Source of the DNA: Chiloscyllium plagiosum
Taxonomy: Eukaryota
Assembly (NCBI RefSeq): GCF_004010195.1
Contig: NC_057754.1
Location: 4,036,223-4,100,222, forward strand
Length of the DNA: 64,000 nt
Reading direction: 5' to 3'
Shown here: piece after piece, positions 310 through 58,171 of the stretch
Position numbering within the stretch: position 1 is the first letter of the stretch
Layout: every line of letters begins with the position of its first letter
Program-made: the position numbers and the translations under genes
The notes under the pieces: generated by a model
The model's database searches: none
Told to the model about the DNA's origin: nothing
The model's input: only the letters and a program-made list of their open reading frames with translations

Positions 310-1200
310 TTCAATTAATTTGCCTCTTGCTCTTCTACAAGCCGAGCCTGTTTAATCTTTCCACATAAGGCAACCTACCTATTAGTGCTGTCAAGCTTCT
401 CTGAATTGTTTCTAAAACTGTTATATCCTGCATTAAATGAGAATACCAGTACAGTACACAGTACTCTGGATGGGGGTCTTACTAACACCATGTACAACTG
501 AAGCATGATGTGGAGATCCTGATGTTGGACTGGGGTGGGCAAGTCACATGACACCAGGTTATAGTCCAACAGGTTTATTTAAAATCACAACGCTCCTTCT
601 TCATCAGGTGAAGTGAAGCAAGACCTCCTTATATTGATACTCACTTCCCATTGCAATAATTTCTTTAATTACTTGCTGTATCTGCAAACTAACCGAGATT
701 CCTCTGCATCTCAGCTTTATAGTTTCTCAATATTTAGATAATGTGCCTCATTTTCATTCTGTCAGTCAAAATGAAACATTTCACACTTTCCCACATTATA
801 CCTCAATTTCCCAAGATCTCTTCCCAATCATTTAACCTATTCGAATCCCTTTGTGGCCTCCTTCCATCTTCTTCACAACTTACTTTCCTATATCTTTGTG
901 TCATTGGCAAATTGAGCAATCACGTATTCACCTTATTCATTTGTATAAATTATGAACAGTTGATGTCCCAGTATAGACTCTTATGGCATAGCACTCATTT
1001 GCCAACTTGAAAAAAGGCATTTTATGCCTATTTTCTGTTTTTAATTATCCAGACAATCTTCCATTCATGCCAAGGTTGCCCTTATACCATAGGCTTTTAT
1101 TTTTCTCTTTGATGTGGCTTTCTGGAAATTTGCATATATGTCCACCATAGATTCTCATTTATGTTGTTCTCTCAACAAACTCCCAATAAATGAATTAATC
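310..1200 (-). mobile_element. Decayed CR1-type LINE fragment, interrupted by a Penelope-type short element
   Basis: Degenerate reverse-complement CR1 ORF2 3' sequence. Confidence 0.5.
507..613 (-). mobile_element. Penelope-type short element, family B (half copy)
   Basis: acaccaggttatagtccaacaggtttattt...cttcatcagg shared with 36866 and 56968; tgaagca repeated on both sides. Confidence 0.6.
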
Positions 1201-1214
1201 ATGAATTCCCTTTC

Positions 1215-1615
1215 GAAGGGGAGGTGATGGCCTGGTAGTATTATCGCTAGACTCTTAATGTAGAAATGTAACTAATGGAGACCCAGGGAGAATTTGAATT
1301 CACTTTTTAAAAACAAAATCTGGAATTATGAATCTACTGATGACCATAAAAACGCTGTTGACAGTCGATTGTCGGACAAACCCATCTTGCTCACTAATAT
1401 CCTTTCGGGAAGGAAATCTGCCATCCTCACCTGGTCTGGCCTGCATGTGACTCCAGAGCCACAGCAATGTGGTTGATTCTCAACTGCCCTCTGGAATGGC
1501 CTAGCAAGCCACACAGTTGTATCGATCACTATGATTTCTCAGCAATGAAATAAAATGGGACAGGCCACCTGGCGTCGAACTGAATTCCAGAGGAGAGATG
1601 AGAGTGACAGCCCTT
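1215..1615 (+). mobile_element. SINE or 5' head of a LINE family
   Basis: ggaaggaaatctgccatcctcacctggtctggcctgcatgtgactccaga is shared with 12400-12460, 43690-43790 (-) and 49520-49610. Confidence 0.55.
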
Positions 1616-1619
1616 AAAA

Positions 1620-1910
1620 TCAAGATCTCACAAACAGCGCTGCAGTACTGACAAGACAAGTTGTTTGGGGTGATGATCGTTGAGGGATAAATGTTGGCCC
1701 CAAGAAACCTGGGAGAACACTCTTACCATTCATCCAGTAGTGACACTGGGCCTTTTCCATGTCTACTTTAGAGGACCATAGTTTAACATCCACTCCCAAA
1801 CATGGCACCCCTACAGGGCAGTGCTCCCTCAGCATTGAGACTGTGAGGAGTATCAGCTAAGACTGTAAGGTCAAGTTGTAGAGTGGGAACTGAAATCTGT
1901 AACCTTTCGG
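1620..1910 (-). mobile_element. DeuSINE (SacSINE1-like) relic
   Basis: Reverse complement of Deu-domain-like sequence; related relics near 7580-7860, 10150-10460 and 20330-20700. Confidence 0.55.
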
Positions 1911-2459
1911 CGTATACGTAGTCTATACCTCTGGCATGTTGTGACCATCTTTCTTTGGGGAATAATTCTGCTTCTGCTTCCCTGGGTCAGGGGGAGGGGA
2001 GAATCAGCCAGAACGCCTTGAGTTCCTAGTTTTGCAATATTTGTCTGCAAATGTGAGAGGAAGTGAGGGAGAGAGAGAAAGAACACTTGTTGAGAGCAAG
2101 ATCAAGCTACGTGTGATGCTCCCAGCAGTAGAATATTTACACAGGGTGACTGGATATGAAGCCTGTTTGACAGGTTGACACCACAGACTTGGCTCTTTGC
2201 TGTTTGGGGGGAAAATGGAACCCATCTTCCTGAACTGATTCTTGGAATTATAAAGAACTTACAGCAGAAATAGAATTGTGGCGGTTTTGCTCCATACAAG
2301 CCTCCTCCATCCCTAAAAGCATATTATTTCTCCCTTTTGTGTTCAATTGGCTTCCTCTTTAGCTTCCCTGTGCTATTAACCTCAGTCTTGCCTTGTGGGG
2401 AGTGAGTTCTACATTCTTGTCATCCTTTGAGTGAAAGAGATTTCTCCTAAATTTCCTAA

Positions 2460-3515
2460 TTGAATTTATGGATGACTAATAACAAGTTTGATAGAATTGT
2501 TTGAAAATGTGATCAAGTGTGTAGATGAGGGAAGTTCAGCTGATGTAGTAAATGTGGACTTTAGCAAAACTCTTGACAAGGTCCCATGTGGGAGACTGAG
2601 AAGGTTAAGGCACATGGAATTGAGGGAAACTTGGTGAGATGTATCAGAAACTGGCTTAGTAATAGGACACAAAAGGTAGTGGTACAAGGCCATTTGTGTG
2701 ACTGGAGGCTGGTGTCCAGCAGTGAACGACATGGATCAGTACTGGGACCCTTATTGTTTGTTATATACATAAATGATACAGATGAAAATGTTGGGAATAG
2801 GTGATGCAAATTTGCAGACAACACCAGGATTGGTATAGTGGTTAATAGCAAAGAGGATGGTTGTAGGTTTCTGGAAGATATAAATGGGTTGGTCAGGTCA
2901 GATATTTAACCCTGATAAGGGCGAGGTGATGCACTTTGGAAGAACAACAAGATGGGGGAGTACTTAATGAATGGAAGGATATTGGGTAGCTTAGAAGAAC
3001 AGAGGGATCTTGGGATAATTATTCACAGATCCCTGAAGTCAGCAGAACATGTCAATAGGAATAGTTAAGGAGGTATGTGCTTTCACCAGTTGTGGCACAG
3101 AGGAGGGACTAAATAGGCTTGGATTGTTTTCTTTAGAGCAGAAAAGACTGAGGGGAGGGACATGATAGAGGTGAATAGGATTAAGAGTGGTATGGACAGG
3201 GTGTATAGAGAACTGCTGTTCCCCTTGGTTGACGGGTCAGTCATGAGGAGGCATAGTTTTAGGGTGAGGTGCAGGCAATTCCGAGGGGATTTGGGGGAAA
3301 AGACTTTTTCACCCAGTGGGTGGTGGGAATCTGGAATGCCCAGTCTGGGAACTTAGTGCAGGCTGAAAACCTTACAACTTTTAAAATAGTACTTCAAATA
3401 TTAGAACATTCAAGGATATGGGAGAAGTGCAGGAAATTGGAATTAGCATAGTTATGCCGGTGCAGACTCAATGGGCCAAAGGCCCTTTTCTGCGCTTTGT
3501 GAACCTATGAATCTA
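2460..3515 (+). mobile_element. CR1/HER1 LINE 3' fragment (RT pseudogene)
   Basis: Broken RT peptides DFSK.LDKVP, KVKAHGIEG, GSVLGPLLFVIYIND, KFAD.T.IG, FFTQWVVGIWN. Confidence 0.85.
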
Positions 3516-5169: not shown

Positions 5170-6545
5170 TTCTCAACAGTGCAGAGAATATCACTCTGTA
5201 TCATCTCCATGATGCACCTGCCCCGAGCCAGTTTGATGGGGCAGTGCAGAAGGAGCTTTACTCTGTATCTAACCCCACGCTGTCCGAGTCCTGGGAGTGT
5301 TGGATAGGGACAGTATAGAGAAAACTTTACTCTGTATCGAACCCCGGGCTATCCCTGTCGCTGGGAGTGTATGATGGGGGACAGTGTAGAGGGAGCTTTA
5401 CTCTGTATCTAATCCTGTGCTGTCCCTGACCCTGGGAGTGTTTGACGGGGGAGCAGTGTAGAGAGAGCTTTACTCTGTACCTAACCTCATACAGTCCCTC
5501 TCCTGGGAGTGTTTTATGGGGACAATGTAGAGGGAGATTTACTGTGTATCTAACCCCATGCTATCCTTGTCCCTGGGAACGTTTGGGGGACAGTGTAGAA
5601 GGGTACAAAGTTAAAATTCACACAATACCAGGTTATATTCCAACAGGTTTATTTGGAAGCACTAGCTTTCACAGAGCTGCTCCTTCAGGTGGTTGTGGAG
5701 TATAAGATCATGAGACACAGAATTTATAGCAAAAGTTTACAGTGTGACATAACTGAAATGATATATTGAAAAAGACCTGGATTGTTTGTTAAGTCTTTCA
5801 TCTTTTAAAATGAACATGTTGCTTTCATCCAGTCTGTACCTGTCCTGGCAGTATTTGATGGGGACAGTGTAGAGAGAGCTTTACTCTGTACCTAACCCTG
5901 TGCTGTCCCTGTCCCTGGGAGTGCTTGATGGGGGACGGTGTGGAGGGGGCTTCATTCTGCATCTAACCCTGTGCTGTACCTGTCCAGATAGGGTTTGATA
6001 GGGATGATGTAGAGAGAGCTTTATGCTGTATCTAACTCTGTGCTGTAGCTGTCCTGGGTGTTTTCCATGGGGACAGAGGGAACCTTAGTTTCAGTTTAAA
6101 AGACTAGAAAGAGCTTTCCTTTGCATCTCATCCAGTCTGTACTTGTCCTGGGAGTATTTGATGTGGACAATGTAGAAGAAGCTTTATTCTGCTTTTAATC
6201 CTGTGCTAGCCTTGTCCTGACAGTGTTTGACGTGGACAATGTGGAAGGAGATTTACTTTCAGTTTAAAAGAGTAGAGAGAGCTTTATTTTCAGGTTAAAA
6301 GAGCAGAGGGAGCTTTATTGTGGATCTAACTCCATGCTGTCCCTGCTTTGGGAATGTTTGATTGAGGCAGTGTAGAGAGAGCTTTACCTTCAGTTTAAAA
6401 GAGCAGAGGAAACTTTACCTTTAGTTTAATAAGCTTTATTCTGTATATAACCCTAATGCTGTACCTGTCCTGTAAATGCTTGATGGGGACACTGTAGGGG
6501 TAGCTTTACTTTCAGTTTAAAATATTAGAGGGACCTTTACTCTTA
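5170..6545 (+). repeat. ~68-bp shark minisatellite array (ctttactctgtatctaaccccgtgctgtccctgtcctgggagtgtttgatggggacagtgtagagggag)
   Basis: Many tandem copies; interrupted at ~5603-5825 by a family B Penelope-type fragment. Confidence 0.9.
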
Positions 6546-8119
6546 ATCTAAATCGGAATTAAATCTAGCCGTTGTCCTTCCTGATTACCATCCCTCTTCC
6601 CTTTAAACAATTCAAAGTGCTACATTCTACCCACTCTCTGGATAAAGAAATTTGTCTTGAATTCTATTTCATTTATTATGATTGTGTATTAAATTGATTG
6701 AACCCCTAGTCTGATCTCCACAGGGTTCCCCATAAGTGGCAACATTTTCTCTACCTCGAACCTATTGAGTGTCTTTGGAATGTTTAAAGTCCTCCTCCAG
6801 ATCACCCCTCCACCTCAGAATTGCAGCCTGTTCAATGTCTTGATACACACATCCTCTCAGTTCTGGTATCCCGCTGGAAAATCCTTGTTTTAAATTTTAC
6901 ATATTGTCCAGTGCTTCTTGGAGGTTGGACCTTGCTCTGTGAGGTCCAGTCAAGTTTTGACCTAATCTCAAGAAGACTCAATGGGGCTCAGTCTGGGGCC
7001 TTGCCTAAAACTGTGGCTGTAGAACACGACAGGTGTCACATTCCCAATCTGGCTCCTGCTGAAGTTAGAACAAGATACCCTTCCACCACAGAGTGTAAAC
7101 ACTGCCTCGAAGTTCCTTTTAGACTGATGCTTCAGAGGGCGGGGATGTCGTTGCTATGGCAAAGCAGCGATACGAGGCCTTGATGTTGTACTCTGTTGGT
7201 GCAGGCCCCTAATGTGCAAGGAAGTTATCAAGGGCATTGCACTTCCAGCTTGTTTGTTCTGTGTGAGGTGGGGAGTATTGTAGGGGAGGGCAGGGAGGAG
7301 GTAGTGGTATTGAGTTTGTTGGCTTGGGACAGGCAAGTGGCAGGATGTCCTCTCTCCGTCAGTTTACAACCTACATTACGCGGCAGCTAGCAGTTGTGTG
7401 TATGTGTGTAATGGTATTGTTCACTAGGCTTGCTGGGTCATAGGTCACCAGGTCCCTCAGGCCAGCTGCCAATAGTCTCTTCCTGCCTCTGGAGCGTCCT
7501 GCGCTCATGGACTGACTGCCAAAAACATAAAGGCATTCAGATTTACAATGTGGGAGAGTCATTTCTCTTAAAGGATCCAGGCTGTGTAGACAGCAAGTGG
7601 AGGTTGTACAGTAAGGCGACAAGGCTGCAGAAACAGCAACAAGGATTTTTAAGGAGGAATGTTGACCAAGGGATCAAATTGTCAGATAATGCTCCTCTTG
7701 TGAAGTGCCTTTGTTAAATACAGACTTCTGGTCATAGATCTTTCAAATCCGCCTGAAAGGCCGAGAAATCTCAACTGAGGGTCAACACCTCTGACAATCT
7801 GGCATTTCCTCTATACTATATTGAGAGTCTGGACTGACACTGACATCCACCACCTGATTCCGAGGACATTGGGAAAATCAGGCTGGGATACAATAAAAAT
7901 GAGAGAAGTGGTTATAAGTTTAATTTTGAATTGTGTACTAATCCAAAACCACAAGGGTTAAGAGAAACTTCCCTTTGTTCCTCTCGCGCTCTCTGCGTAA
8001 ACCCAGGGGGCCAGAGAAAAAAGGAAATAAAACATCTTCCTTCACTAGCTTTGGGGAGCATATTGGGACACCAATATTGGTTGTGAAAAGTGCTAGATAA
8101 ATCCCTCCTCCCATCCTTT

Positions 8120-8430: not shown

Positions 8431-10836
8431 AAGGAAAATTCATTAAATTTGCAAATGTCATATCACATCCCATCTTGTGTATTTCCAAATGGAGCTCTGG
8501 TATGTTAATTCCTAAGTATGATTTTTTAAAACTTCTTTTCCCCCTCCGACTGTTGTAAATTTCTATCCCTCATTTCTTTGTAAAGAGTATTCTCCTTATA
8601 GCCCTGAGGTAATTGGTGACCTGCTTATTCATTCACCGTAGTTTCAGCTCGATCACCAGTTGTCTCAGAGTGATGTGCTTTTTGTTCAATTCAATAAAAG
8701 GAAACCAAAAAGCAAATCTCATTTTTCCTTCATTTTGTTTGTTTCCTCTTTGTCACCCTCCTCAATTACTGCTCTGTTCAGACTCCAGAATCACTCTTCC
8801 TCATTCACCTAAAGCACTACATCAGCATCCTCCATGTCTGCGTCAGGTGAAGGCTTTGTCTACGGTGCTGTCTGTGCTAAATGTCCTGATCAACACCCAG
8901 ACTTGGAAGAGGGAGGGAATGTTGACCATTTGTTTAATAATGACCACCCTACGAAAGTACCTTGGAATGTCTCAATGTGGAAAAAGGTGAAGTAAATGCA
9001 AGACTAACTCTCTGTGCAGTGCATCTGTCTTCCTACTGCATGGTCTTAGGATGCAGCTGTAATAATGTGAGCAGCAGACAGGGATGGTTACCCCCTAGGC
9101 ATTCAGAAGGGAGAAAGAGAGAGCGAGTGGCGATTCAGTGGAGTGTATGGAACAAGGTTCTTGACCATTCTTTTAATGCTTCTGGCCCTCTCTGGACTCC
9201 TCATTAATAATCTGGTCTGACAGCAGAGACTGCTATGTTCCAAATGGAGACTTTTTAAAAAGAAATTAAATTCTTCCTTGGCATACTGGAGGGTACATAG
9301 AAGAATGCATATAAACAGAAGAGTTAGGCTACAGGAAAGATGCACTTTGGTGTGCTGAATGGCCTTGCCTTTCCTTTGACTGTCTTATGTCCTTTCAGGT
9401 CACTTTTGTTAATCTTTCCTTGGACAGAATCTGTGCTGGAATTGGGGATATTGTGCCAGTCATGTAGAACCACCTGTCTAATCTCCCTGTGCCCAAACCT
9501 ACTTCCCAATTAAAAACACTGGTTGAAGCAGCAAGTTGTTTAGGAGCAGGGTGACCTATTTGCAGCACTTCTTTTCTCAACTCCCATGTCAACGAACTCT
9601 TAAATCTTTGGAATCCAAGAAATGTGAGTGAGTGTGACATTCCATTTCAATGGCATGGGGCCAGAAGGTGAGGGAGGCCATTTGACTCATGTAGTTGATC
9701 CTGCCTTCCATCAGCCCAATTGCTCAACTCTCTTGTGAGTTTTTCAAAGGTTTGCCCCTATCTCTTGGCCTTCTGCTCCCAGCTATCTGTTTGTCAGGAA
9801 GTGTACCCCTCTTCTCTCCCATTGGACCATAAGGTATAGGAGCAGCATTAAGAACCACTTGGCCAATCTGCTCCATTGTTTGATCATGGCTGATGTTTTT
9901 CAACCCCATTCTCCTGCCTTCTCTCCATAACCATTGATTCCCTTATTAATCAAAGAACCCATCCATCTCTGTCTGGCCCACACTGACTGGGCAATGAGCC
10001 AGAAAAAAAGGGCATTCAATGTGTTGAATAAGAATCTGGTTGCCTGTCTTAATGTCCTGCTTGACCATGTGAAATCCTTGTCTGAAAACATTCCTGTCCA
10101 GTGGCGTGGAATGTTTCACTGCATTAATGATGCTATTTAAATGCAGGTTGTTGTTATAAAACAATGCCTTTGGCAACCTCAGAATGTCCAAGAGCTATAA
10201 AAGGTACTCGGGCAAGAACTCCCCTGCTCTTCAAAACAATTACCTGTGAAACCATTTTCATCCACCTCAAAGGGCAGGTGGGGTCTTAGTTAAGTGTTTC
10301 ACCCGAAATATGACATCTCAGACAGTACAGCACTCCCTCAATATTGTATGAGGACTGACTGTCTAGACTTTGTGCTCAAGTCTCTGGCTTGGGATTTGTA
10401 TCATAATCTTCTGTCTGAGTTGCCAGTGTTGCTGCCAACTAAACCACAGCTGATGCTTTTAAATTTAAAAAAATTGGTAATAAAAAATAAGAAGCATTTA
10501 AGATGTAAGTAAGGATTAAATCATAGGATATGTGGCTTTGGAAAAGATTTCTTCATGAACAGATAATGGGTATTTTTAATTAACCATCAAGGCATTAGAG
10601 AGGATACGGAGGAGGTTTACCAGAGTGCTTCCAGAAATGAATGATTTCAGCTATATAGACAGACTAATTCTGGGATGGATTCTCATTAGAGCAGGAAAGT
10701 CTTAAAGTGTGATTTAGAAGTGGGGTTCAAAATCATGCGATCAAGTTTAGAAAAGGCAGTAGTGCAGTGGTATTGTCAGTTGAAACTTTATTGCTGGAAC
10801 AGCACAGCAGGTCAGGCAGCATCCAGGGAACAGGAG

Positions 10837-10872
10837 ATTCGACGTTTCGGGCACAGGCCCTTCTTCAGGAAT
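10837..10872 (-). ncRNA. Minimal type I hammerhead ribozyme motif
   Basis: attc-CTGAAGA-a-GGGC-ctgt-GCCC-GAAA-c-GTC-gaat: intact core, 4-bp helix I and helix II. Confidence 0.75.
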
Positions 10873-11084
10873 GAGCAGAGAGTGTTCAGCAGGAGAAGAT
10901 AAAAGGTAGGGAGGAGGGACTTGGAGGAGGGGCGTTGGAAATGTGATAGGTGGAAAGAGGTCAAGGTGAGGGTGATAGGTCGGAGTAGGATGGAGGCGGA
11001 GAGGACAAGAAGAAGACTGCAGGACAGGAAGGCGGTGCCGGGCGGGAGGGACTCGGCTGAGACAAGGTGGGGGGAGGGGGGATG

Positions 11085-11505
11085 AAGAAACTGGTGAAGT
11101 CCAAGTTCATCCCCTGTGGTTGGAGGGCTCCCAGTCGGAAGATAAGACGCTCCTCCTCCGACCGTCGCGTTGTTGTGGTTTGGCGGTGGATGAGTCCAAT
11201 GACCTACATATCCTCGGTGGAGTGGGAGGGGGAGATGAAATGCTGTGCTACAGGGTGGTTGGGTTGGTTCGTCCGGGTGGCCCAGAGGTGCTCTCTGAAT
11301 CGCTCCGCAAGTAGGCGGCCTGTCTCCCCAATATAGAGGAGGCCACACCGGCTGCAGCGGATGCAGTAGATGATGTGGGTGGAGGTGCAGGGGAATCCGT
11401 GGCGGATATGGAAGTTTCCTTTGGGGCCTTGGAGAGAAGTGAGGGGGGAGGTATGGGCGCAAGTGTTGCACCTCCTGCGGGCGCAAGGGAAGGTGCCGGG
11501 AGTGG
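11085..11505 (-). pseudogene. Penelope GIY-YIG endonuclease, one in-frame stop
   Basis: FPCARRRCNTC...IIYCIRCSRCGLLYIGETGR...RFREH...HPVAQHF...EDM*VIGLIH...RRSEEERLIFRLGALQPQGMN. Confidence 0.9.
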
Positions 11506-11819
11506 NNNNNNNNNNNNNNNNNNNNNNNNNNNNNNNNNNNNNNNNNNNNNNNNNNNNNNNNNNNNNNNNNNNNNNNNNNNNNNNNNNNNNNNNNNNNNNN
11601 NNNNNNNNNNNNNNNNNNNNNNNNNNNNNNNNNNNNNNNNNNNNNNNNNNNNNNNNNNNNNNNNNNNNNNNNNNNNNNNNNNNNNNNNNNNNNNNNNNNN
11701 NNNNNNNNNNNNNNNNNNNNNNNNNNNNNNNNNNNNNNNNNNNNNNNNNNNNNNNNNNNNNNNNNNNNNNNNNNNNNNNNNNNNNNNNNNNNNNNNNNNN
11801 NNNNNNNNNNNNNNNNNNN
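11506..11819. other. Assembly gap (N run)
   Basis: Run of N bases. Confidence 1.
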
Positions 11820-11853
11820 TGATCTCCAGCATCTGCAGACCTCACTTTCTCCT

Positions 11854-12033
11854 TTATAATCATCTAGAAAAGAATAATTTGATTAGGGATAGTCAGCACG
11901 GTTTTGTGAAGGGTAGGTCGTGCCTCACTAGCCTTATTGAGATCTTTGAGAAGGTGACAATACATGTTGATGATGGTAAAGCGGTTGATGTGGTGTATAT
12001 GGACTTCAGTAAGGCATTTGATAAAGTTTCACA
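11854..12033 (+). mobile_element. CR1 RT fragment enclosed within the Penelope insertion
   Basis: YNHLEKNNLIRDSQHGFVKGRSCLTSLIEIFEKVT...AVDVVYMDFSKAFDKV, open frame. Confidence 0.85.
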
Positions 12034-12256
12034 CTTGACATCTTTCCACCTATCACATTTCCAACTCCCCTCCTCCAAGTCCCTCCTCCCTACCTTTTAT
12101 CTTCTCCTGCTGAACACTCTCTGCTCATTCCTGAAGAAGGGCCTGTGCCCAAAACGTCGAATCTCCTGTTCCCTGGATGCTGCCTGACCTGCTGTGCTGT
12201 TCCAGCAATAAAGTTTCAACTTTGATCTCCAGCATCTGCAGACCTCACTTTCTCCT

Positions 12257-14870
12257 CAGTGGTATTGTCACTAGACTAGTCAACTTGATCCAGGCTAAGG
12301 GTGTAGGGGTTTGAATCCCACTACAGCAAATGGTGAAATCTGAAATTCAGTTAAGAAATCTGAAATTAAAAGCTTGACCTTAAACCAATTGCTATAAAAC
12401 CCAGTCCAGTTCACTAATGTCCTTACCTGGTCTGGCCTACATGTGACTCTAGATCTGCAGCAACTCCCATGACTCCCATGAAGCAACTCCCATGAAGTTT
12501 AAATGACTCAGCAAGCCATTTGCTATGCCGCACACTACACTCAGGTATGTCTAACTGCTATAATGTCTGTTAAAAGGAATGAATCGGCCAGTTTCAATGG
12601 TACTTTACTGATCTTGCAAAGTTAGCCATTGTTTAAAAAAGAATCTGGGGCTAGTGCCTAAATTGAAAGAGCTGTTTCACAGACTCATCAAGCAACAGCC
12701 TGATGGAGTCATTCTCACATAATCATACTGACACACACAGTCTCAAACGACACCATCAATAACATAGCTTGGCAGCACAGAATATAGACTCAGAAGAAAG
12801 TTGCCCTGGAAGTCCCCTGTATGAATTCTGGATCGATGAAGTCTCATGGCATCAGGGCAGACATGGGTAAGGAAAATATATACTGATTACTAGCTACGTC
12901 ATCCCCAGCCCCGCTGATGGATTAGTTTTCCTTCAAGTTAAACAACACTTGGAAGACTCACTGAAGGTGGCAAAGGATGGGGATGGGGATGGGCTGGTTG
13001 CATTCTAAAGGCCATAGCTGCTGATCTGACTTGTGGCAAGTGGTGAGGGAGCCAACAAGATGAGAAAATGTACTTGACCTCATCTTGTTTCTGGATTAGT
13101 AGTGCTGGAAGAGCACAGCAGATCAGGCAGCATCCAAGGAGCAGTGAAATCGACGCTTCGGGCAAAAGTCCTTCATCAGGAATAAAGCCTCATCTTAACC
13201 AACCTATTTGTAGCAGATACAATTACCCATAGAATGGATAGGGGTGATCATTGCACATTGCTTGTGGAGACAAAGTCCTGCCTTCATGATGAGATGCTCT
13301 CAGGACTACCTGAATGGAATAGATTTCAAGCAGATCTAGCAACTCAAGACTAGGCGTGTAGAAGGCATCTTGGGCTATTCGAGGCAGCAGACATGTATTC
13401 AACCACAATCTGTAGCCTTGTGGCTGATATGACCCTACTCCAGCTTTACCACCAAGTCAGGGGATCAACCCTTGTTCAATGGAGAGTGCAGAAGGACATG
13501 CCAGGCGCAGCACCAGGCGTACCTAAAAATAACATGTTAATCTGATGAAGCCATCGCACAGGATTATTTGCTTGTTAAGCAGCATGCGATAAACAGGGCT
13601 AAGTGACCTACATCAACTGATCAGATCTAAGGTCTCCAATCCTGCCACATCCAGTCAAGAATGGTGACGAATGACTAACTCATTTGAGGAGGAATCTCCA
13701 CAAATGTCTGCATCTTCAGTGATGGGTGAGCCCAGCATCTCAGCATTTACACGCATCTATTACAATTACCTACAGCCAGATAAAGATGAGTGGATAATTG
13801 TCTTAGACCCAGTGTCACAGGTACCAGTCTTTAGCCAATTTGCTTCATTCTGCATGATTAAAGAAACAGCTGGAGTTACTGAACACTGCAAAGGATAGGG
13901 GTCCTGACAATATTCTGGCGTAGTGTCAAAGACTTGTGCTCCAGAACTAGCCATGGCCCTCACCAAGCTGTTCCTGCAGAGATACAACACTGCCCTCACT
14001 GACATCTACCAAGCATGTAAAATGCACTGGTACATCCTGTCCACAAAAAAAGGACAAATCTGACCATCAGTCTACTCTCAATCAATTAGCAAAGTGATGG
14101 TTTTGGGCTGGTAACTAACAGGTAACATTTGTGCCGCACAAGTTCCCTGACACGATCACCAACAAGAGAGAATTCAATCATCAACCTTTCTCATTCAATG
14201 GCATTACATCACGGAATCCTCTACAATCAATATCCTAGGGGGTTAGCATTGACCAAAAACTGAATGGACCAGTCATATAGATGCTTTGGCTACAAGAGTA
14301 GGACAGAGACTGGGAATCCTACAATGTGAAACCATTCTCCCCTCTCCCCAGAGCCTGCCCATCATCTGTCAGGCACAAGTCAGGCACGTAATGGACTACC
14401 CTCCATTTGCCCTGGAGAGGTTAAGCTCCAACAATACTCAAGAAGCTCAACACCATCAAAGATAAAGCAGCCCATTTGACTGGCACCATATAACACCTTC
14501 AGCATTCACTTCCTATACCATCGAACCACAGTGGCAGCAGTGTGTACCTTTTACAACTCGTGAAGACTCTTGCAACAGGACCTTCCAAATCCATTACCTC
14601 TACTACTGAGAAGGACAAGGGGCAGCAGGTATATGGAAATTTCCCTGCCATGCTCCACTGTGATGTGGACCTATGTCACTCTACTTTCACTGTCACTAGG
14701 TCAAAATCCTGGAGTTCCCTCCCTAACAGCATTGTGGGTGTCCTTACACCACACAGACTGCAACAAGTCAGGAAGGCAGTTTGCCACTATCCCCTTCTCA
14801 ATGGGCAATTAGGGATGGACAATAAATGTTGGTTTAGCCATTGATGCACACATCCTGTGAATGAATAAAA
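12257..14870 (+). mobile_element. Decayed, internally deleted non-LTR retrotransposon (CR1/L2/jockey-group RT)
   Basis: tRNA-like head, RT remnants GPDNI...KTCAPELAMALTKLF...PVHKK...ISLLS, 3' end ...gggcaattagggatggacaataaatg...gaatgaataaaa. Confidence 0.7.
13087..13187 (-). mobile_element. Penelope-type short element, family A, with decayed hammerhead
   Basis: TSD cctcatctt at 13078-13086 and 13188-13196; - strand CTGATGA...GAAG-C-GTC. Confidence 0.7.
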
Positions 14871-20951: not shown

Positions 20952-21145
20952 ACAAAAATAGAAATTGATGGAAAAGCTCAGCAGTTAATGTTCAGGTTGA
21001 ATGACCCTTCCTCAGAACTGGACCTGAAACATTAACTCTGATTTCTTGCCACAGATGCTGTCAGACTTGCTGCACTTTTCCAGCAATTTCTGTTTTTGTC
21101 TCTGATTTACAGCATCCCCAGTTCTTTTGGTTTAATTCTGATAAG
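20952..21145. mobile_element. Palindromic Penelope-type element, family D, inside the Gypsy 5' LTR
   Basis: Arms gacaaaaatagaaattgatggaaaagctcagca / tgcacttttccagcaatttctgtttttgtc; - strand CTGAGGA core; absent from the other LTR copies. Confidence 0.7.
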
Positions 21146-23784: not shown

Positions 23785-24033
23785 GGTGAGTTTTGAGAAG
23801 ATTTGTAGCCTAGGTTGAGGTTCTGGATGTAACTTTGCTCGCTGAGCTGGAAGGTTCATTTCCAGACCTCACCACAGGAAATGACATCATCAACCCAAAG
23901 AAACCCAAACATATAAATAGAAAGCAGGAATCATGTACAATGCTTCGCCTGGAGGCCCACTGAAGATGTTACCTAGAAAGGTAACGAAATGTCTGGAAAT
24001 GAACCTTCCAGCTCAGCGAGCAAACCTACATCC
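23785..24033 (+). mobile_element. Penelope-type element, family C, with hammerhead core
   Basis: TSD atagctggtggt at 23773-23784 and 24034-24045; inverted arms 23824-23867 / 23991-24034; cca-CTGAAGA-t-GTTACC...GGTAAC-GAAA-t-GTC-tgg at 23957-23996. Confidence 0.8.
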
Positions 24034-24142: not shown

Positions 24143-24365
24143 GAAAGTGAGGTCTGCAGATGCTGGAGATCAGAGATGGAAATGTGTTGCTGGAAAAACG
24201 CAGCAGGTCAGGCAGCATCTAGGGAACAGGAGAATCGACGTTTCGGGCATTAGCCCTTCTTCAGGAAATCATCCTGAAGAAGGGCTAATGCCCGAAACGT
24301 CGATTCTCCTGTTCCCTAGATGCTGCCTGACCTGCTGCGTTTTTCCAGCAACACATTTCCATCTC
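24143..24365. mobile_element. Perfect palindromic Penelope-type element, family A, with two hammerhead cores
   Basis: 94-bp perfect inverted arms 24173-24266 / 24272-24365; duplication catattattacaggga at 24127-24142 and 24365-24380. Confidence 0.9.
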
Positions 24366-35175: not shown

Positions 35176-35176
35176 A

Positions 35177-36865: not shown

Positions 36866-37082
36866 TAAAAATCACACAACACCAGGTTATAGTCCAACAG
36901 GTTTAATTGGAAACACACTAGCTTTCGGGGTGCCTCTCCTTCATCAGATGGTTGTCAACCACCTGATGAAGGAACGGTGCTCCGAAAGATAGTGCTTCCA
37001 ATTAAACCTGTTGGATTATAACCTGGTGTTGTGTGATTTTTAATTTTGTATACCCCAGTCCAACACCAGCATCTCCAAATCA
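36866..37082. mobile_element. Palindromic Penelope-type element, family B, hammerhead cores on both strands
   Basis: TSD tttgaactgaaagt at 36852-36865 and 37083-37096; CTGATGA at 36963 and GAAA at 36984; - strand CTGATGA...GAAA-G-CTA. Confidence 0.85.
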
Positions 37083-37344
37083 TTTGAACTGAAAGTAATG
37101 CTCCTTTCACACTATCTATCAGACACTCCCAGGACAGGTACAGCACTGGGTTCAATACAGATTAAAGGCCCCTCTACACTGTCAGTATCAAATAATCCCA
37201 GGGCAGGTACAGCATGGAGTTAGATATCGAGTAATGATCCCTCTACCCTTAAAATGAAATTAATACTTCCTCCATACTACCACCTCAAACACTCACATGA
37301 CAGGTACAGCATTGGGTTAGATACAGAGTAAGTCTCCCTCTATT

Positions 37345-37983
37345 AGAGTCATAAAGATGTACAGCATGGAAACAGACCCTTCGGTCCAACCCATCCATGC
37401 CGACCAGATATCCCAACCCAATCTAGTCCCACCTGCTAGCACCCGGCCCATATCCCTCCAAATCCTTCCTATTCATATACCCATCCAAAAGCCTCTTAAA
37501 TGTTGCAATTGTACCAGCTTCCACCACTTCCTCTGGCAGCTCATTCCATACACGTACCACCCTCTGTGTGAAAACGTTGCCCCTTAGGTGTCTTTTATAT
37601 CTTTCCCCTCTCACCCTAAACCTATGCTCTCTAGTTCTGGACTCCCCAGGGAAAAGACTTTGTCTATTTACCCTATCCATGCCCCTCATAATTTTGTAAA
37701 CCTCTATAAGGTCACCCCTCAGCCTCTGATGCTCCAGAGAAAAAAGCCCCAGCCTGTTCAGCCTCTCCGTGTAGCTCAAATCCTCCAACTCTAGCAACAT
37801 CCTTGTAAATCTGTTCTGAACCCTTTCAAGTTTCACAACATCTTTCCAAAAGCGTACCAAACGCCTTCTTCACTATCCTATCTACCTGCGACTCCACTTT
37901 CAAGGAGCTACGAACCTGCACTCCAAGGTCTCTTTGTTCAGCAACACTCCCTAGGACCTTACCATTAAGTGTAGAAGTCCTGC
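37345..37983 (-). mobile_element. CR1/HER1 LINE 3' fragment
   Basis: ORF KDVVKLERVQNRFTRML...RLGLFSLE..RLRGDLIEVYKIMRG...FTQRVVRVWNELP. Confidence 0.9.
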
Positions 37984-38289
37984 TCAACAGTTTTTCCATC
38001 AGGCATCCTGAATAGGGACAGCACATGGTGAGATACAGAGTGAAGTTCCTTCTACTTCTTCAAACTGAAAGTAAAGTTTTCTCTACTTTTTAAAACTGAA
38101 AGTAAGGCATGCTTGAAACTGTCACCAGGATAGGAACAGTACAGATGAAATACAGAGTACATCTGTCTCTACTGTTTTAAACTGAAAGTTGAGCTGTCTC
38201 TACTCTATTGAACTTAAAGTAAAGCTCCCGCCACAATGTCCCCATCAACCACTCCCAGGAAATGTACAGCAATGGGTTGGTACAGAGTA

Positions 38290-38483
38290 TTGAAAGTGTG
38301 GTGCTGGAAAAGCACAGCAGGTCAGGCAGCATCCGAGGAGCAGAAGAATTGAGCAGGAGAATGAATGGGTCTTGCTCAAAATGTTGACTCTCCGACTCCT
38401 CGGATGCTGCCTGCCCTCTGTGCTTTTCCAGTATCATACTCTCGAGTCTAATCTCCAGCATCTGCAGTCCTCACTTTCTCCTG
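38290..38483. mobile_element. Decayed family A palindromic element
   Basis: gctggaaaagcacagcaggtcaggcagcatcc / ggatgctgcctg...ttttccag; 3' end ctcactttctcct. Others at ~46915-47095 and ~57455-57578. Confidence 0.7.
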
Positions 38484-38514: not shown

Positions 38515-38855
38515 GGTAACACGGTGGCTCAGTGGTTAGCACTGCTGCCTCACAGTGCCAGGGAACCCGATTTGATTCCACCCTCGGGTGACTGTCTGTG
38601 TATAGTTTGCATGCTCTCCCCGTGTCTGTGTGGGTTTCCTCCGGGTGCTCTGGTTTCCTCCCATAGCCCAAAACCGTGCAGGTTAAGTGGATGGGCCACG
38701 CCAAAGTGCCTTCTAGTGTCCAAGAACGTGTAAGCTAGATGGGTTAGCTACGGGAAAAAGTCCATGCGGTGTTATGAGGATGGGATGTTGTTCAGATGGT
38801 CAGTGCAGACTCTATGGGCCAAATGGCTTCTTTCTGTGCTGTAGGGATATTGTGA
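38515..38855 (+). mobile_element. HE1-type SINE
   Basis: ggtggctcagtggttagcactgctgcctcacagtgccaggg head. Confidence 0.8.
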
Positions 38856-41844: not shown

Positions 41845-42235
41845 GCGTGAGGTTAGATATGGACTAAAGCTGCCTGTACTTTTTAAAACTGAAAGAAACG
41901 AAAAGTAAAGTTCGCTCAAAACCATCCCATTACTCATTCACGGGACAGCAACAGCATGGGGTTAAATACAGAGCAAAGTTCCTTCCACTCTTTGAACTAA
42001 AAGTGAACTGAAAGTAAAGTTTAGTTTGTGTTGTCCCCAAGAAACACACTCAGGGATCGGGACAGTACGGGATTAGATATAGAGTAAAGTTTTCTCTACT
42101 CTTTTAAATTGGAAGTAAAACTCCTTCCAGACTGTCCCCATCAAGCAGTCTCGGCACAGCACTGGGTCAGATACAGAGTAAAACTTCCTCTACACTGTCC
42201 CCATCAAGCACAGCCAGGACAGGGCTAGATAGAGT
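41845..42235 (-). repeat. ~68-bp minisatellite array
   Basis: Same unit, - orientation. Confidence 0.8.
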
Positions 42236-44289: not shown

Positions 44290-44680
44290 AGAGCAACTAC
44301 AACACTGGGTTAGAGATAAAGTTGCCTCTACTCTTTTAAAGAGAAAGTAAAGCTCCCTCATCACTGTCTCTATGAAGGACTCCCAGGACAGGCACAGCAC
44401 AGGGTTTGAGCCAGTGTAAAGCACTTCTACTCATTTGCATTGAAAGTAAAGCTCACGCTACACTGTCCCCATCAAACTCCCAGGGCAAGGACAGCATGGC
44501 GTTAGATGCAGAGTAAAGCATCCTCTACACTGTCCCTCATCAAACACATTCAGGATAGAGTAAAGCTTCTACTCTTTTTAAACTGAATGTAAAAAAAACC
44601 CTCTGCACTGTTCCCATCAAACACTCCCAAGACAGGGACAGCATAGGGTTAGATACAGAGTAAAGCTCCCTGTAACACTG
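44290..44680 (-). repeat. ~68-bp minisatellite array
   Basis: Same unit, - orientation, in the intron between coding exons 5 and 6. Confidence 0.8.
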
Positions 44681-46010: not shown

Positions 46011-46121
46011 AATAAAAAGTGTTACGTAAATAAAATGTGTTACTAAAACCAAAAAAGAGTTAGTGATGTCCAGAGGTTGTAAAATCTGTGGAAAATACAC
46101 ATTCCTACTTTTTCTTTCCAG

Positions 46122-46704
46122 TGTTGCGGTCACCCGATCAAAGGATATTCCTGAGTTTGGGCCCTTTTTCCAGAAGGGGGTGACTTTCCCTAAATCGGCC
46201 AACTTCCGGGATTTTTTGCTTGCCAAAGTGGTCAATGCTGAGAATGCAGCAGAGAAGTCAGAAAAGTTCCATGCCATGGCTACCAGAACACGGCAGGAGT
46301 ATCTCAAGGACCTAGCGGATAACTATGTTACCACAGCTACTCTGGACTCCTCCTCGTCCAAACTGGCAGCCATCATCTCGCTGCCTACCAAGAAGAAGGA
46401 GAAGCTGAAGTTAAACCGAGCCCCCGAGATGCATAGTGCCGGTGCTCTAGTCTGGAGTGTTACTGCTCGCCTGGCGCATGCCCCTGAGGAAGCTGAGTGC
46501 ATTCTGGGAATCTCCAATGAGTTTGTCGTGCTGCTTGATCTAAAGTTGCGAATGGTTGTGTGGAATTGCTCCTGCCGGGATGTGATTGGTTGGACCTTGT
46601 CTCCGGGGACCATTATAATTTATTATGAGCGAGGAGAATTCGCAGTGGTTAAGACTTTGGAAAGTCAGCCAGATGACATCACTGAAATTATTCAGCGGCT
46701 GGAG
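46122..46704 (+). CDS. SIPA1: SIPA1 coding exon 7 (end of RapGAP and linker)
   Basis: tttctttccag|T; (S)VAVTRSKDIPEFGP...FRDFLLAKVVNAENAAEKSEKFHAMATRTRQEYLKDL...CSCRDVIGWT...EIIQRLE; donor GAG|gtaagt. Confidence 0.96.
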
Positions 46705-47094
46705 GTAAGTGTGGGAAGAGATCGCGAGACGTGCACCACCACCGTTACTGCCAGTCTGCTGCCTAAAACATGAGTTGGAGTCTCAAGTCTGTGCCAAAAT
46801 GCTAGAGACTCATTGTATTTCCTCATACCACATCCAACCTAATAAAATACAGCGATCAATAAATCAAACAATCCAAACCAACCCATCCAGCCAGCTAACT
46901 GGGTCAAACCCAACAGAGTTGATAAAGTGTGGCGCTGGAAAAGGCACAGCAGGTCAAGCAGGACCAAGACAGTCTTCATTTCAGGCAGGACCCCCGATAC
47001 ATTAACTCTCTTGCTCCTTGGATGCTGCCTGACCTACTGTGCTTTTTCCAGCTCCATGCTTCATCAACTCTGATTTCGCCTGCATCTGCAGTCA

Positions 47095-47410
47095 TCTAGG
47101 CCAAACCCAGCAACCTAACCAACCCCAAACAACACACTGCATCTCATCAATTAACCAAGCAACTAGCTAACTCCAAGCCAGCCATTCTGGTGCAACACAA
47201 CAACTGACCCAACTTAAACCCAACAACTTAACTAACCTAAACAATAGAATGCAACTCACCCACCCTATCAAGCAAACAATTGACCAATCTACTCAGTTAA
47301 GTCCAGTCACCTACCCAATTCAACTCGTCCCACTGATTAATCAAGTGACCCAACTCTAATCAATGCCCAAACACCCTCTCAACCCAATCAATCCATGCCC
47401 ATTGCACATC
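47095..47410. repeat. AC-rich low-complexity tract (caacc-like)
   Basis: Composition. Confidence 0.6.
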
Positions 47411-50814: not shown

Positions 50815-51165
50815 CATAGAATCATAGAATCCCTATAGTGTGGAAACAAGCCATTCAGCCCTACAAATCCACGCCGAACCTCCGAAGAGTAACCCATCCA
50901 GACCCATTCCCCTACTACTCTACATTTACCCCTAACTAATGCACCTTACCTACACATCCCTGGATACTACGGGCAATTTAGCTCGGCTAGTTCACCTAAC
51001 CTACACATTTTTGGACTGTGGGAGGAAACTGGAGCACCCAGAGGAAACCCACGCAGACACAGGGAGAACATGCAAACTCCACGGAGACAGTCACTTGAGG
51101 CTGGAATTGAACCCAGGTCCCTGGCACAGTGTGGCAGCAGTGCTAACCACTAGGCCACCGTGCCT
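50815..51165 (-). mobile_element. HE1-type SINE, full length
   Basis: Homologous to 20..307, with the catagaat tail. Confidence 0.85.
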
Positions 51166-51834
51166 CCTCAGAGTTATTTTCCATACCTCGCATTACCTAC
51201 AAACTACACCAAAACTGAAGCTATCAGATTCTCACTGGGTGAAGTTAAAATGTTATTTGTGTCAGTATTAATAAATGGGTTTGTGGCCACGTTGATGGAA
51301 CATAACACACTGTCACTGCCTCAAATCAGACTCTTTGCATGGTGACCAACAGCCCCAGGAAGCTATGTCAAACATACATAGGTCCTTGGTTAGACCACAC
51401 ATGCAGTTTTGTTAAAACAGTTCTGGTTTCCATGTTGCAAAATTGGCATAAAGGCATCTGGGAAAGTGCAAAACAAATTTACAAAGATAATACCAGAACT
51501 GAGAGCTGACAGCATAACAGGAAAATGTGAACAAACTAGGGTTCCCTTCTCTAGGAAAGGGAAGGTTGAGGGGCGACCTGATGGATGTCCTTAAGGTGAT
51601 GAGAGGATTTGTTGGTGGAGATCTGGCGAGTATGATTCCACCAGTGGGGGAGATTGGAAGTCAGGGTCATAAACTTAAGACAGTTATGAATGAATTTAAT
51701 AAGGGAATTCAGAAGAAACACCTTTGTTTAGAGGATGGTGAGAAAGGTTGAATCTGCAACCACAGAAAATAATTGAAGCAATTAGAATAAATGCATCTAA
51801 AGTGCTGTTCAATAAACACCAGAGAGAAAGGAAC

Positions 51835-52030
51835 ATGTAATGGAAAAGCTCAGCAAGTCTGGCAGCATCTGTGGAGGGAAATCAGAATTAATGTTTCAGG
51901 TCAAATGACCCTTCCTCCGAACTGTTAACTCTGATTTTCCCCACAGATGCTGCCAGAACTGCTGAGATTTTCCAGCAATTTCTGTTTTTGTTTCTGATTT
52001 ACAGCACCTGCGGTTCTTTTGATTTTTATA
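51835..52030. mobile_element. Palindromic Penelope-type element, family D
   Basis: ggaaaagctcagcaagtctggcagcatctgtgg / ccacagatgctgccagaactgctgagattttcc. Confidence 0.75.
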
Positions 52031-55769: not shown

Positions 55770-55982
55770 CAAAGCAACAAATTGCTGGAAAAGCTCAGCA
55801 GGTCTAGCAGTCTGTGGAGAGAAATCAGAGTTAACGATTCGGGTCAAGTAACCCTTCCTCAGAACTGGAACGTTAATTTTGATTTCTCTCCACAGATGCT
55901 GCCAGACCTGCTCAGCTTTTCCAGCAGTTTCTTGTTTTGTTTCTGACTAGCAGCATCTGCATTTCTTTCAGTTTCTTTTCAT
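55770..55982. mobile_element. Palindromic Penelope-type element, family D
   Basis: Inverted arms; near-TSD ttatttgaagga / ttatttgaggga; - strand gtt-CTGAGGA...GAAT-c-GTT-aac at 55830-55865. Confidence 0.75.
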
Positions 55983-56189
55983 TTATTTGAGGGAATTGGC
56001 ATGCCGGACCTGTGTTGAGATATGTATTGACAACCAGGATAGGGCCTTTACAATAACCATCAAGGGTGTTGGGGTAGAGAGGGAAGAACAAAACAGGATT
56101 CCGGGATACTGTCCAGTAATCCAGGAAGTATGTGCCTGCATGTATGACTGTTTCATCTCTAAAGACTGCAGCTAGAGGCCCACTCCAGG

Positions 56190-56500
56190 GAATTGAATAC
56201 TGTGTCTTGAATGAGAACAGAGACCCCATCCACCCTTTCAGATGGAAATAAATACACCACTGTGCTGTGTTGGAAGAAGAGCAGGGGCGGTTTCCCTGGT
56301 TTTGTGCAGTCCAAAATTTATTCCTCAACCAACGTGACTTTAAGAAAAAAAATTGATCTGGTCACTATCACATTTCTGTTTGTGAGATCTTGCTGTGTGT
56401 AAATTGACTGCCACTTTTACTCAACCTCACAGTAGTGACTGCACTTTGGTGCTTTAAGATGCCTCGAGGAGGTGAAAGGCATAGACTCAATCTGAGTTTT
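56190..56500 (+). mobile_element. DeuSINE-like element ending at the exon 9 acceptor
   Basis: gaagaagagcagggg...tttattcctcaaccaac...ctgtttgtgagatcttgctgtgtgtaaattgactgcc...gaggaggtgaaaggc. Confidence 0.65.
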
Positions 56501-56514
56501 TTCTGTCTCTGAAG

Positions 56515-56718
56515 GAGTTTTTCTGAGCTGTACCGAAAGTCAATCGAAGAGACCGAGCGAAAGGGTGACAGAGTGACAGACTCAGGCCTGGGGTCTCCTT
56601 GCTTGCGATTCCTAAGGACGTCCTCACTCCAAGAAACCCGCAACATCAGTTCAGAAGGGGACCAGTGCCTGACGATGCGTAGCTGCTCTCTAGAGAAGAC
56701 GTCTGTCCAAAGCCAGAG
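56515..56718 (+). CDS. SIPA1: SIPA1 coding exon 9
   Basis: ttctgtctctgaag|G; (M)SFSELYRKSIEE... resembles the SIPA1 post-PDZ motif RSFSELY; open to donor AG|gtaatt, phase 2/2. Confidence 0.85.
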
Positions 56719-56967
56719 GTAATTATGAATGAGTGAATTGCATTATGAAAGCAAAGCACAGCGGAGGTCCCAAGAAGCATACACAAAATAATCAAGAAAA
56801 GGCTAATAATATTTGCCTTTCTAACTCATGGGCTCAAATGAAAAGCGGTGGATGTTTTATTGTAACCATACAATGCCCTAGTTCGACCACAGCATAGTTA
56901 GGAAGGATATACTGTTCTTGGAAGGAGTGCAGCGTAGATCACCAGTATGTTGCCAAGGCTTTTCAAG

Positions 56968-57158
56968 ATGTGGCAGTGCCAGTGATGGACTGGGGTGGAC
57001 AAGGTCAAAAGTCACACAACACCAGGTTATAGTCCAACAGGTTTATTTGAAATAACAAGCTTTGGGAGTGCTGCCCCTACACCTGATGAAGGGCAGCGCT
57101 ATGAAAGCTTGTGGTTTCAAATAAACCTGTTGGACTATAGCCCAGTGGTGTGTGATTT
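56968..57158. mobile_element. Palindromic Penelope-type element, family B
   Basis: Near-TSD caaggcttttcaag (56954-56967) / caaggcatttcaag (57159-57172); cac-CTGATGA...GAAA-gctt-gtg at 57080-57113. Confidence 0.8.
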
Positions 57159-58171
57159 CAAGGCATTTCAAGGATTAGATAAGGAGAGATGACATAATGA
57201 GATTTGTTTTCCATTAGAATATAGAGTATTCTGGCATGATTTGAATTTAGGGTTTTGACAGTAATTGATGGTGTGGAATATTCCTTTTTTGCTGGTGGTG
57301 GTGGTGAGTGAATTCTATGACAAAGGAGTGTAATGTAATAACTGGATCAAGCCAGGCCATTGTGAAGAAAAGGTAGGAAAAATGCCTTTGTACTAAAGGC
57401 AGTAGATACCAGCTGAGTTTAAATTCAGGATTAATAGAGTTTTGCTACACTACAGTAATGATAAAGGGCTTATGCCCGAAACGTTGATTTTCTCGGATGC
57501 TACCTGACCTGTTGTGCTTTTCCAGCACCACACGTTTTGACTCTGATCTTCAGCATCTGCTGTCCTCACTTTCTCCTAGACATAAGATACAGACCAGCCA
57601 TGGGCTCACTGATTTACTGAATAGAAAGCAGGGGCTGACTGGTTCCTGTGAATAAGTGAGTAATACAAAACCAAATAAGGGATAGATTAGGGCAAGTGGT
57701 CAAAGCTCAGGTAGGTTCAAGGGAGTTTTTTTTAAAACAGAAGGGAAAGCTGCATGGAAGGAATTTCAGAGTTTGGGGCCAAACAGTTAAGGGGCATGTT
57801 CATGATAAAGAGATTAAAACTGAGGATCGATAAGACATTAGAATTTAAAAATCATCATTGTAGGGGCTGGAAGAGGTTAAAGGAAAAGCAGACCCTGGAG
57901 ACACATAAAAACAAAGATAAGAATTTTAAAACGACAACAGGAGAGAATCTAAGTCAGTAAAAGTACAGAGGAGTGAACAGGACTTGGTGTGAGTTAGAGT
58001 ATAGGCAACAAGAGTTTTAGATGTGCTGTGGCTAAGTTGTTTTAGCAGAAGATCAGCTGAGATAGTGATTGGTGTATATCAAGCCTTACATTATAGGAAG
58101 GCTTGCTGATGACAATTTTAGCATGGACTTTTATGAACCACTGTTTGACAGCTGGAGTTTCTCTGTTTCAG

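Follow-up and report, generated by a model that had tools for sequence, protein, structure and literature searches.

Short hairpin repeats in a shark genome as probable insertion products of Penelope-like elements

A 64-kb stretch of the genome of the shark Chiloscyllium plagiosum (NCBI RefSeq assembly GCF_004010195.1, contig NC_057754.1, positions 4,036,223 to 4,100,222; hereafter the window, that is, the whole 64,000 nucleotides analysed) is dotted with short hairpin repeats, and the question it raises is what made them. The first-pass annotation had placed 13 copies in four families, A to D, and had argued that they look like miniature inverted-repeat transposable elements (MITEs) but derive from Penelope-like elements (PLEs). 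Our results suggest that the hairpins are probably short insertion products of the terminal module of PLEs that bear an endonuclease (EN), and that each was assembled anew. The layout is already described for PLEs in general, and the shark hairpins are real but mostly ordinary. The less ordinary part is that, where arms extend to the front of a hammerhead ribozyme motif, 10 of 14 stop 2–9 bases short of its core; the mechanistic lead it offers is run-off combined with two primings.

Family copies are indeed present at all 13 of the positions claimed. Together with a compound unit that contains a GIY-YIG open reading frame (ORF) they make 14 PLE-type insertions in the window, about 3.9 kb in total. 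Nine are hairpins (A24143, A38290 and A46915; B36866 and B56968; C23785; D20952, D51835 and D55770, named by family and position) and four are single arms (B507, B5603, A13087 and A57455). Most units hold no ORF and measure 190–250 bp. In the list below TSD stands for target-site duplication, the tail is an extension found on one arm, and arm ends are counted from the C of CUGA (position 0) on the strand on which the hammerhead reads. Hairpins and the compound unit are given without a strand.

509..610, minus strand: internally deleted single arm of family B, tailed, starting 3 nt before CUGA (5′ end); TSD of 13 bp, weak (2 mismatches)
5603..5821, minus strand: single arm of family B that extends ~130 nt upstream and has a tail of only a few bases; without TSD; inside a 69–70 bp satellite
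5723-5728: TATAAA of B5603, 40 nt before CUGA (−40)
10779..12256: compound family A insertion; perfect 14-bp TSD at 10765-10778 and 12257-12270
10779..11505, minus strand: tail-less arm of the compound unit, with the 3′ part of a PLE-like ORF, a pyrimidine-rich untranslated region (UTR) and an intact minimal hammerhead (CUGA 10868)
11506-11819: gap of 314 N in the compound unit
11820..11853, plus strand: tail of family A, bordering the N gap on its right side
11854..12028, plus strand: 175-bp fragment of the reverse transcriptase (RT) of a long interspersed element (LINE), flanked by two family A ends in direct orientation; match to RVT_1 below cut-off (24.2 bits)
12029..12256, plus strand: tailed family A arm, 98% identical to the inverted arm; CUGA 12131; tail ~12222-12256
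13087..13187, minus strand: family A single tail-less arm; perfect 9-bp TSD; 5′ end 4–8 nt before CUGA
20952..21143: hairpin of family D with its tail at the right end; TSD of 10 bp, 1 mismatch; internal deletion in the left arm
23785..24033: hairpin of family C with its tail at the left end; TATAAA (23912) and hammerhead (CUGA 23960) in the long arm; perfect 12-bp TSD
24143..24364: family A hairpin; arms 93/93 identical, 5-nt loop, two head-to-head hammerheads, perfect 16-bp TSD
36866..37082: hairpin of family B inside the satellite, its centre a single nt and its arms reaching to −8 and −7; TSD of 14 bp, perfect
38290..38482: hairpin of family A inside the satellite, with 10 nt of duplicated filler where the arms meet; without TSD
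46916..47098: decayed family A hairpin; 14-bp TSD, 2 mismatches
51825..52027: family D hairpin; TSD not found
55770..55982: family D hairpin; 12-bp TSD, 1 mismatch
56968..57158: hairpin of family B with its tail at the left end; TSD of 14 bp, 1 mismatch
57455..57577, plus strand: family A single arm, tailed; TSD not found

Do these insertions share one design, as had been proposed? The nine hairpins do: each carries a one-sided extension of 30–45 nt on a single arm, and where the arms can be aligned end to end they are 81–100% identical (D20952 is internally deleted). The four single arms depart from that design. The accompanying claim of a 9–16 bp TSD stands in part. A TSD score of at least 9 is reached by 7 of the 14 insertions compared to 5 of 296 random position pairs, another three insertions score 7–8 (16 of the 296 random pairs reach 7), and the last four have none. 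TSD lengths span 9–16 bp overall and are 9, 14, 14 and 16 bp within family A. The layout of EN-bearing (EN+) PLEs, which is an inverted shortened copy, a one-sided tail and a TSD of variable length, can thus be seen in the nine hairpins and in the compound unit, with a TSD, three times a weak one, in 10 of all 14 insertions.

Comparison of the two arms of A38290 over 62 bases gives 12 differences, 10 of them transitions, and most fall where subfamilies also vary. Age or two different template RNAs may account for them. The 69–70 bp satellite is a minisatellite dispersed over seven places (5177-6550, 29249-29830, 31607-32286, 36343-37342, 38012-38290, 41926-42228 and 44311-44680). It hosts 3 of the 14 PLE insertions, and two of these (B5603 and A38290) are without TSD.

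Being short and noncoding, with long inverted repeats, the hairpins resemble MITEs of DNA transposons with terminal inverted repeats (TIRs). This explanation can hardly be right and is already refuted for families A and D. The inverted repeat is terminal on one side only, as a tail of 30–45 nt precedes the TSD on the other. MITEs are expected to have a TSD of fixed length and a uniform interior; here TSDs range from 9 to 16 bp even within a family, all nine loops differ, and solo arms with TSDs of their own exist. Finally, the family A arm continues into the GIY-YIG gene of a PLE. The earlier judgement that the repeats look like MITEs without being TIR transposons is therefore borne out.

The link to a PLE gene is direct for family A, as the first-pass annotation had noted. 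The arm at 10779 runs unbroken on the minus strand through the pyrimidine-rich UTR into the GIY-YIG frame of 10779-11505, where the domain scores above cut-off (PF01541, 24.5 bits). The frame contains one in-frame stop and runs into the 314-base N gap. Its translation has the CCHH cysteines between GIY and YIG (YCIRCSRCGLLYIG) and, in the linker before the domain, a CX4CxxC motif (CARRRCNTC). A CX2-5CxxC linker has been described as a trait of Neptune or Nematis that is absent in Penelope/Poseidon (Craig et al. 2021, PMC8557442; here and below, statements about published work refer to the passages compared). By this motif family A would belong to Neptune or Nematis. We prefer Neptune, because Neptune and Poseidon are the PLE clades reported in vertebrates (Li, Clavereau and Pollet 2026, bioRxiv 10.64898/2026.07.22.740005). 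The best protein matches of the frame are from Chiloscyllium (84% and 79%) and Rhincodon (62%), the latter also with RVT_1. The relatives P0003 (62%) and P0016 carry both RVT_1 and GIY-YIG, and the window copy enters the N gap upstream.

The unit at 10779-12256 is a long version of the hairpin design, with a tail-less inverted arm, a tailed arm and a 14-bp TSD. Within the TSD the order is long tail-less inverted arm, N gap, tail, LINE fragment and short tailed arm. The LINE fragment, which we take to be CR1-like by its motif, thus lies inside a TSD-bounded PLE unit between two direct ends. It is likely captured DNA, and the adjoining N gap hides the middle of the unit.

How many lineages does the window hold? 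The first-pass annotation counted four unrelated families, which is one too many. A and D are homologous from end to end (z ~15), and the likeness stays at z 10–11 when the first 35 nt, the ribozyme core, are left out. B and C resemble the other families only in the ribozyme core or not at all. As judged by alignment there are three unrelated groups: A with D, B, and C. The Penelope origin that had been proposed for all of them is supported to different degrees. For A it is supported by physical linkage to the GIY-YIG gene, and for D sequence homology to A supports it. For B and C we infer it from the layout alone. A 21-base motif of A and D also turned up at loci elsewhere (14 metagenomic, 7 prokaryotic and no viral); the likeness never exceeds 27 bases, and all 21 were deemed chance. 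A search among RNA data sets listed none that contain the stretch searched.

The hammerhead was sought with a minimal descriptor (CUGANGA, an optional extra base, a helix II of at least 4 pairs, GAAA and NUH). The window has four matches compared to a mean of 0.09 in 100 shuffles. Single arms pass in family A (3 of 10), and so does the C arm; none of the six B arms and none of the six D arms does, and for these two families only the column-majority sequence passes. The claim that the best-preserved copy of each family has a hammerhead hence holds for single arms of A and C and for B and D by column majority only. Helix II is GGGC/GCCC in A, GGAGC/GCTCC in B, GTTACCT/AGGTAAC in C and GGGTC/GACCT in D, where we dropped one extra pair given by the script that would leave an impossible 2-nt loop. 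Helix I is ATTC/GAAT in the GIY-YIG copy of A and has 2 pairs in the A majority; it is CAC/GTG in B, CCA/TGG in C and AGTT/AACT in D. The sequences of both helices differ between families, and all pair. All families have one unpaired base after A9, a G that opens helix II and a palindromic or decayed tetramer. Each family thus fits the published minimal-hammerhead layout with different helices, and the motifs are putative ribozymes. A scan against Rfam did not find a hammerhead, and its six sub-threshold matches (five microRNAs and one RNase MRP) were rejected. Folding of six single hammerhead regions gave no stability above shuffles (z −1.3 to 0.6), which is expected for minimal motifs and uninformative.

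What do the ends of the arms tell us about how the insertions were made? At the 3′ side, public contigs from three organisms were aligned to 11990-12300 at 85% likeness, which placed 47,796, 29,071 and 25,461 pieces; summed contig depth is not taken as copy number. The largest groups of loose ends lie at 12255-12257 and have long, unlike, AT-rich flanks. In run X1, 852 contigs leave the reference at 12256 and 282 at 12255 (flank agreement 0.35), and X10 and X14 have the same fixed tail end. Tail-less arms end ~30–40 nt before the end of the tailed arm. Hence there are two fixed classes of 3′ ends, tailed and tail-less. These match, by analogy, the two adjacent internal RT start sites that define the tail of a PLE in vitro (Frangieh et al. 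2024, PMC11167929). Overlaps of 1–5 nt between target and start site are seen in the window, and over eight tail-less ends they add up to 10–14 bases compared to ~3 expected (P ≤0.013, hand-read).

The 5′ ends are less evenly spread. Among 24 arms, four extend far upstream, 8–10 stop inside or after the ribozyme and 10–12 stop at −9 to −2. Of the 14 arms that surely reach −2, 10 stop within −9 to −2 (8 of 11 insertions), where 5–7% would be expected at the hazard seen elsewhere (P ~1e-9, which is only a guide). Two contig joints land on 12127, that is, on −4. In X1, X10 and X21 contig depth increases at the front of the hammerhead (in X21 from 177 to 596). The pile-up is not a loss of homology, because the hairpin ends are bounded by short loops. 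It suggests run-off at the start of the RNA together with priming on both target strands.

A start of transcription just before the hammerhead would also agree with the few upstream sequences. TATAAA lies at −40 in the long B copy and at −48 in the long C arm. The usual spacing from TATA box to start is ~30 nt, so transcription of B would begin near −10 to −8, where both arms of B36866 end. Transcription of Drosophila Penelope starts 46 nt ahead of an intron of 75 nt (Schostak et al.) that extends as far as helix I (Cervera and de la Pena), hence the ribozyme is close to the RNA 5′ end there too. Other A subfamilies have an AG at 12104-12105 after a pyrimidine tract (within 12095-12106), ~26 nt before CUGA. 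It is like a splice acceptor and recalls the intron before the hammerhead of Drosophila Penelope.

It could be argued that the 5′ ends are set by the ribozyme itself, with the downstream cleavage product as template. Three of the 24 arms (A38290, C23785 and D51835) start 2–3 nt before the predicted cut, which would speak for this idea. None of the 24 starts exactly at the cut, and 14–16 include the whole catalytic core, which implies uncut RNA; moreover, ribozyme mutants leave insertion in vitro unchanged (Frangieh et al. 2024, PMC11167929). We therefore give this explanation very little chance.

How could one element yield two classes of 3′ ends, a common 5′ end and inverted arms? The inserted module would consist of the minimal hammerhead, an arm of ~95 nt and an optional tail. 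A PLE protein would nick both target strands 9–16 bases apart, and reverse transcription would be primed from each nick. One priming at the far start site would give the tailed arm and another at the near site the tail-less arm. The two cDNAs would grow toward each other and be joined end to end, which would leave the order TSD, inverted arm, arm, tail, TSD. A single priming alone would leave a solo arm, tailed or tail-less. With start sites ~100–140 nt from the 5′ end of the transcript, the cDNA would run off the RNA start rather than stop at random, and the RNA template would be mostly uncut by the ribozyme. We favour a double nick with priming on each strand at two start sites, followed by end joining, as the more probable course. 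That run-off makes the arms short, on a mostly uncut template, we consider slightly better than an even guess. In L1 twin priming, two primings at a staggered cut produce an inversion flanked by a TSD; there the two cDNAs copy different parts of the RNA, whereas the arms of shark hairpins copy the same 95 nt.

The main competitor of two primings is fold-back self-priming, in which a single strand is synthesised, folds over at its 3′ end and primes its own copying, after which the endonuclease trims the tail of one arm. Published proposals of this kind exist, the near precedents being antisense self-priming (Arkhipova et al. 2013, PMC3846280) and "EN-mediated resolution" (Craig et al. 2021, PMC8557442). 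The arms of young hairpins are identical or nearly so (93/93; 188/191), as fold-back would have it. In five of nine hairpins (the three D hairpins, C23785 and B56968) the tail-less arm is clearly the longer of the two, which an antisense template would predict, and includes 5′ sequence that is absent from its tailed partner. For the same reason neither arm is a plain copy of the other. Plain fold-back without trimming fails here, since in these five neither arm contains the other. For the version with trimming the remaining hairpins are awkward. The tailed arm is longer in A38290 and A46915, and the arms are about equal in the last two. The complementarity at the junctions is mostly 0–2 nt or replaced by filler, and in the near-blunt hairpins B36866 and A24143, which lack a fold-back site, the arms stay palindromic until 1 and 5 nt from the centre. 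These near-blunt centres and fillers would fit end joining better than fold-back with trimming. In addition, a solo tail-less arm with a perfect TSD exists (A13087), and two start sites account for the tail in vitro. Fold-back is thus unlikely, in our view, although it is a better candidate than the other rivals.

The junctions also bear on whether hairpins are amplified as a unit, for which a shared loop had been named as the sign. No loop is shared: all nine differ. In the three D hairpins the tail-less arm always ends at −5 and the tailed arm starts at ~+17, +22 and +27. No dominant strand-switch junction was found in the contigs of three genomes, a weak test since contigs break in repeats and the listed pieces are shorter than 80 nt; six opposite-strand joints occur among 15 of 27 listed, each in 1–3 contigs per run. 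Nine different loops and the lack of a dominant junction make amplification of a unit with a fixed centre unlikely.

A related idea is a non-autonomous, ribozyme-bearing mini-element, similar to retrozymes or short interspersed elements (SINEs), that multiplies either as an entire hairpin or through a short RNA of its own and is moved in trans by PLE proteins. The high abundance in contigs of the three organisms and the near-constant arm length would be easily understood. Furthermore, non-LTR retrozymes in animals, including one cartilaginous fish among vertebrates, are noncoding, hammerhead-bearing and derived from the PLE pseudo-long terminal repeat (pLTR) (Li, Clavereau and Pollet 2026, bioRxiv 10.64898/2026.07.22.740005). 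They are head-to-tail tandems with a ribozyme in each unit, whereas the window copies are head to head or solo; neither its 19 tandem-repeat rows nor the 14 insertions include a head-to-tail hammerhead array. Different loops, scarce opposite-strand joints, and stumps that start at −9 to −2 without an upstream TATA box also speak against a mini-element, to which we assign a small chance, little more than to the ribozyme cut. Contig joints include a few from tail to head at low depth. One of them, from 12258 (tail end) back to 12127, has a depth of 74 in X1 and may be a head-to-tail dimer of the short module, retrozyme-like, elsewhere in the genome. The first-pass annotation had left a choice between abortive truncated insertions and a non-autonomous class. 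Separate insertions are favoured, but they are not simply random truncations, because most 5′ ends pile up just before the hammerhead.

Several points weigh against separate insertion by two primings and run-off. First, the sample is small: only 14 insertions can be read whole, and the TSD search found none for four of them (B5603, A38290, D51835 and A57455). Second, breakpoint positions are hand-read, the interval from −9 to −2 was picked post hoc, and the two arms of one insertion are not independent. Third, family A has no clear TATA box, an RNA run has no pile-up of starts or ends (~2% of a poly(A) single-cell run was covered), and X14 has no rise in depth at the front of the hammerhead, a measure confounded by divergence between subfamilies. 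Fourth, a tblastn search of the window with 26 proteins hit the A locus only, which leaves B and C without a protein link in the window (the open stretch of C is only 31 residues). Fifth, fold-back followed by trimming of one tail could yield most of the same shapes. Finally, the element studied in vitro is of the Poseidon clade and the motifs of family A are those of Neptune or Nematis.

How do the shark hairpins compare with known systems? Inverted shortened copies, one-sided tails and short TSDs are typical of PLEs (Arkhipova et al. 2013, PMC3846280; Craig et al. 2021, PMC8557442). The EN+ PLEs of these two papers have an inverted 5′-truncated copy beside a direct one, a one-sided tail of 30–40 bp and TSDs of 8–10 bp or none. 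They also include foreign DNA between two direct pLTRs plus one inverted pLTR within one TSD, as at 10779-12256. The window differs in that most of its units are ORF-free, in their density and in TSDs of up to 16 bp, and clustering of 5′ ends at the hammerhead does not appear in the passages compared.

The hammerheads of Cervera and de la Pena 2014 share CUGANGA, the unpaired base after A9, G10.1, a short helix I and a palindromic 15.2-16.2 tetramer with those of the window. Their motif pairs lie 100–700 bp apart on opposite strands, and many solo motifs are ascribed to truncated PLEs. Those hammerheads are from fish, coelacanth, frog and reptiles, not sharks, and in the parts compared tails, TSDs and junctions are undescribed.

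A mechanistic parallel is green anole Poseidon in vitro (Frangieh et al. 2024, PMC11167929). Two start sites delimit its tail, both strands are cut and extended, a dimer is predicted, uncut RNA is used and targets are AT-rich. It differs from the window in its clade, as said above, and in that no homology of the target to the start site is reported there, in contrast to our overlaps. Hairpin insertions are left unexplained there and later steps are stated to be unvalidated. The origin of tandem and inverted PLE structures is called unresolved in the papers compared here. Our literature search found no account of these shark families or of 5′-end clustering; Repbase, Dfam, most subscription papers and supplements lie outside it and may hold one.

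Where a genome has so many short hairpins bounded by TSDs, counts of their junctions allow two primings to be set against fold-back, and two primings with run-off predict the position of the transcript start. A more tentative idea, which we hold with somewhat less than even confidence, is that in three unrelated shark PLE lineages the main transposition product is a "strong-stop-like" stump, formed by run-off before the hammerhead and primed on both strands by a dimer with the help of two start sites, possibly from two RNAs. If so, MITE-looking hairpins would arise afresh at every insertion, and the genome would preserve on a very large scale, in vivo, where PLEs start, how far apart they cut and how the ends are joined; our literature search did not find a paper with this idea. 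Such repeats are easily mislabelled as MITEs or as microRNA hairpins, given the microRNA-like matches to Rfam.

The surroundings of the insertions contain host exons and other repeats. Long host exons lie on the plus strand at 30309-31559 and 46030-46773, the second of which matches Rap_GAP (34.7 bits) and Rap1GAP structures. The window is probably in what we take to be a SIPA1-like gene, in which case many insertions would be intronic. The C-terminus of a non-LTR retrotransposon is found at 25591-26268 (zf-RVT 25.7 bits, below cut-off) in an open frame of 200 residues. A dispersed repeat of ~300 bp, probably a SINE, has four copies (21-305, 34879-35174, 38520-38846 and 50850-51167), and two LINE 3′-end fragments (35177-35532 and 37344-37869) are 88% alike over 357 bp.

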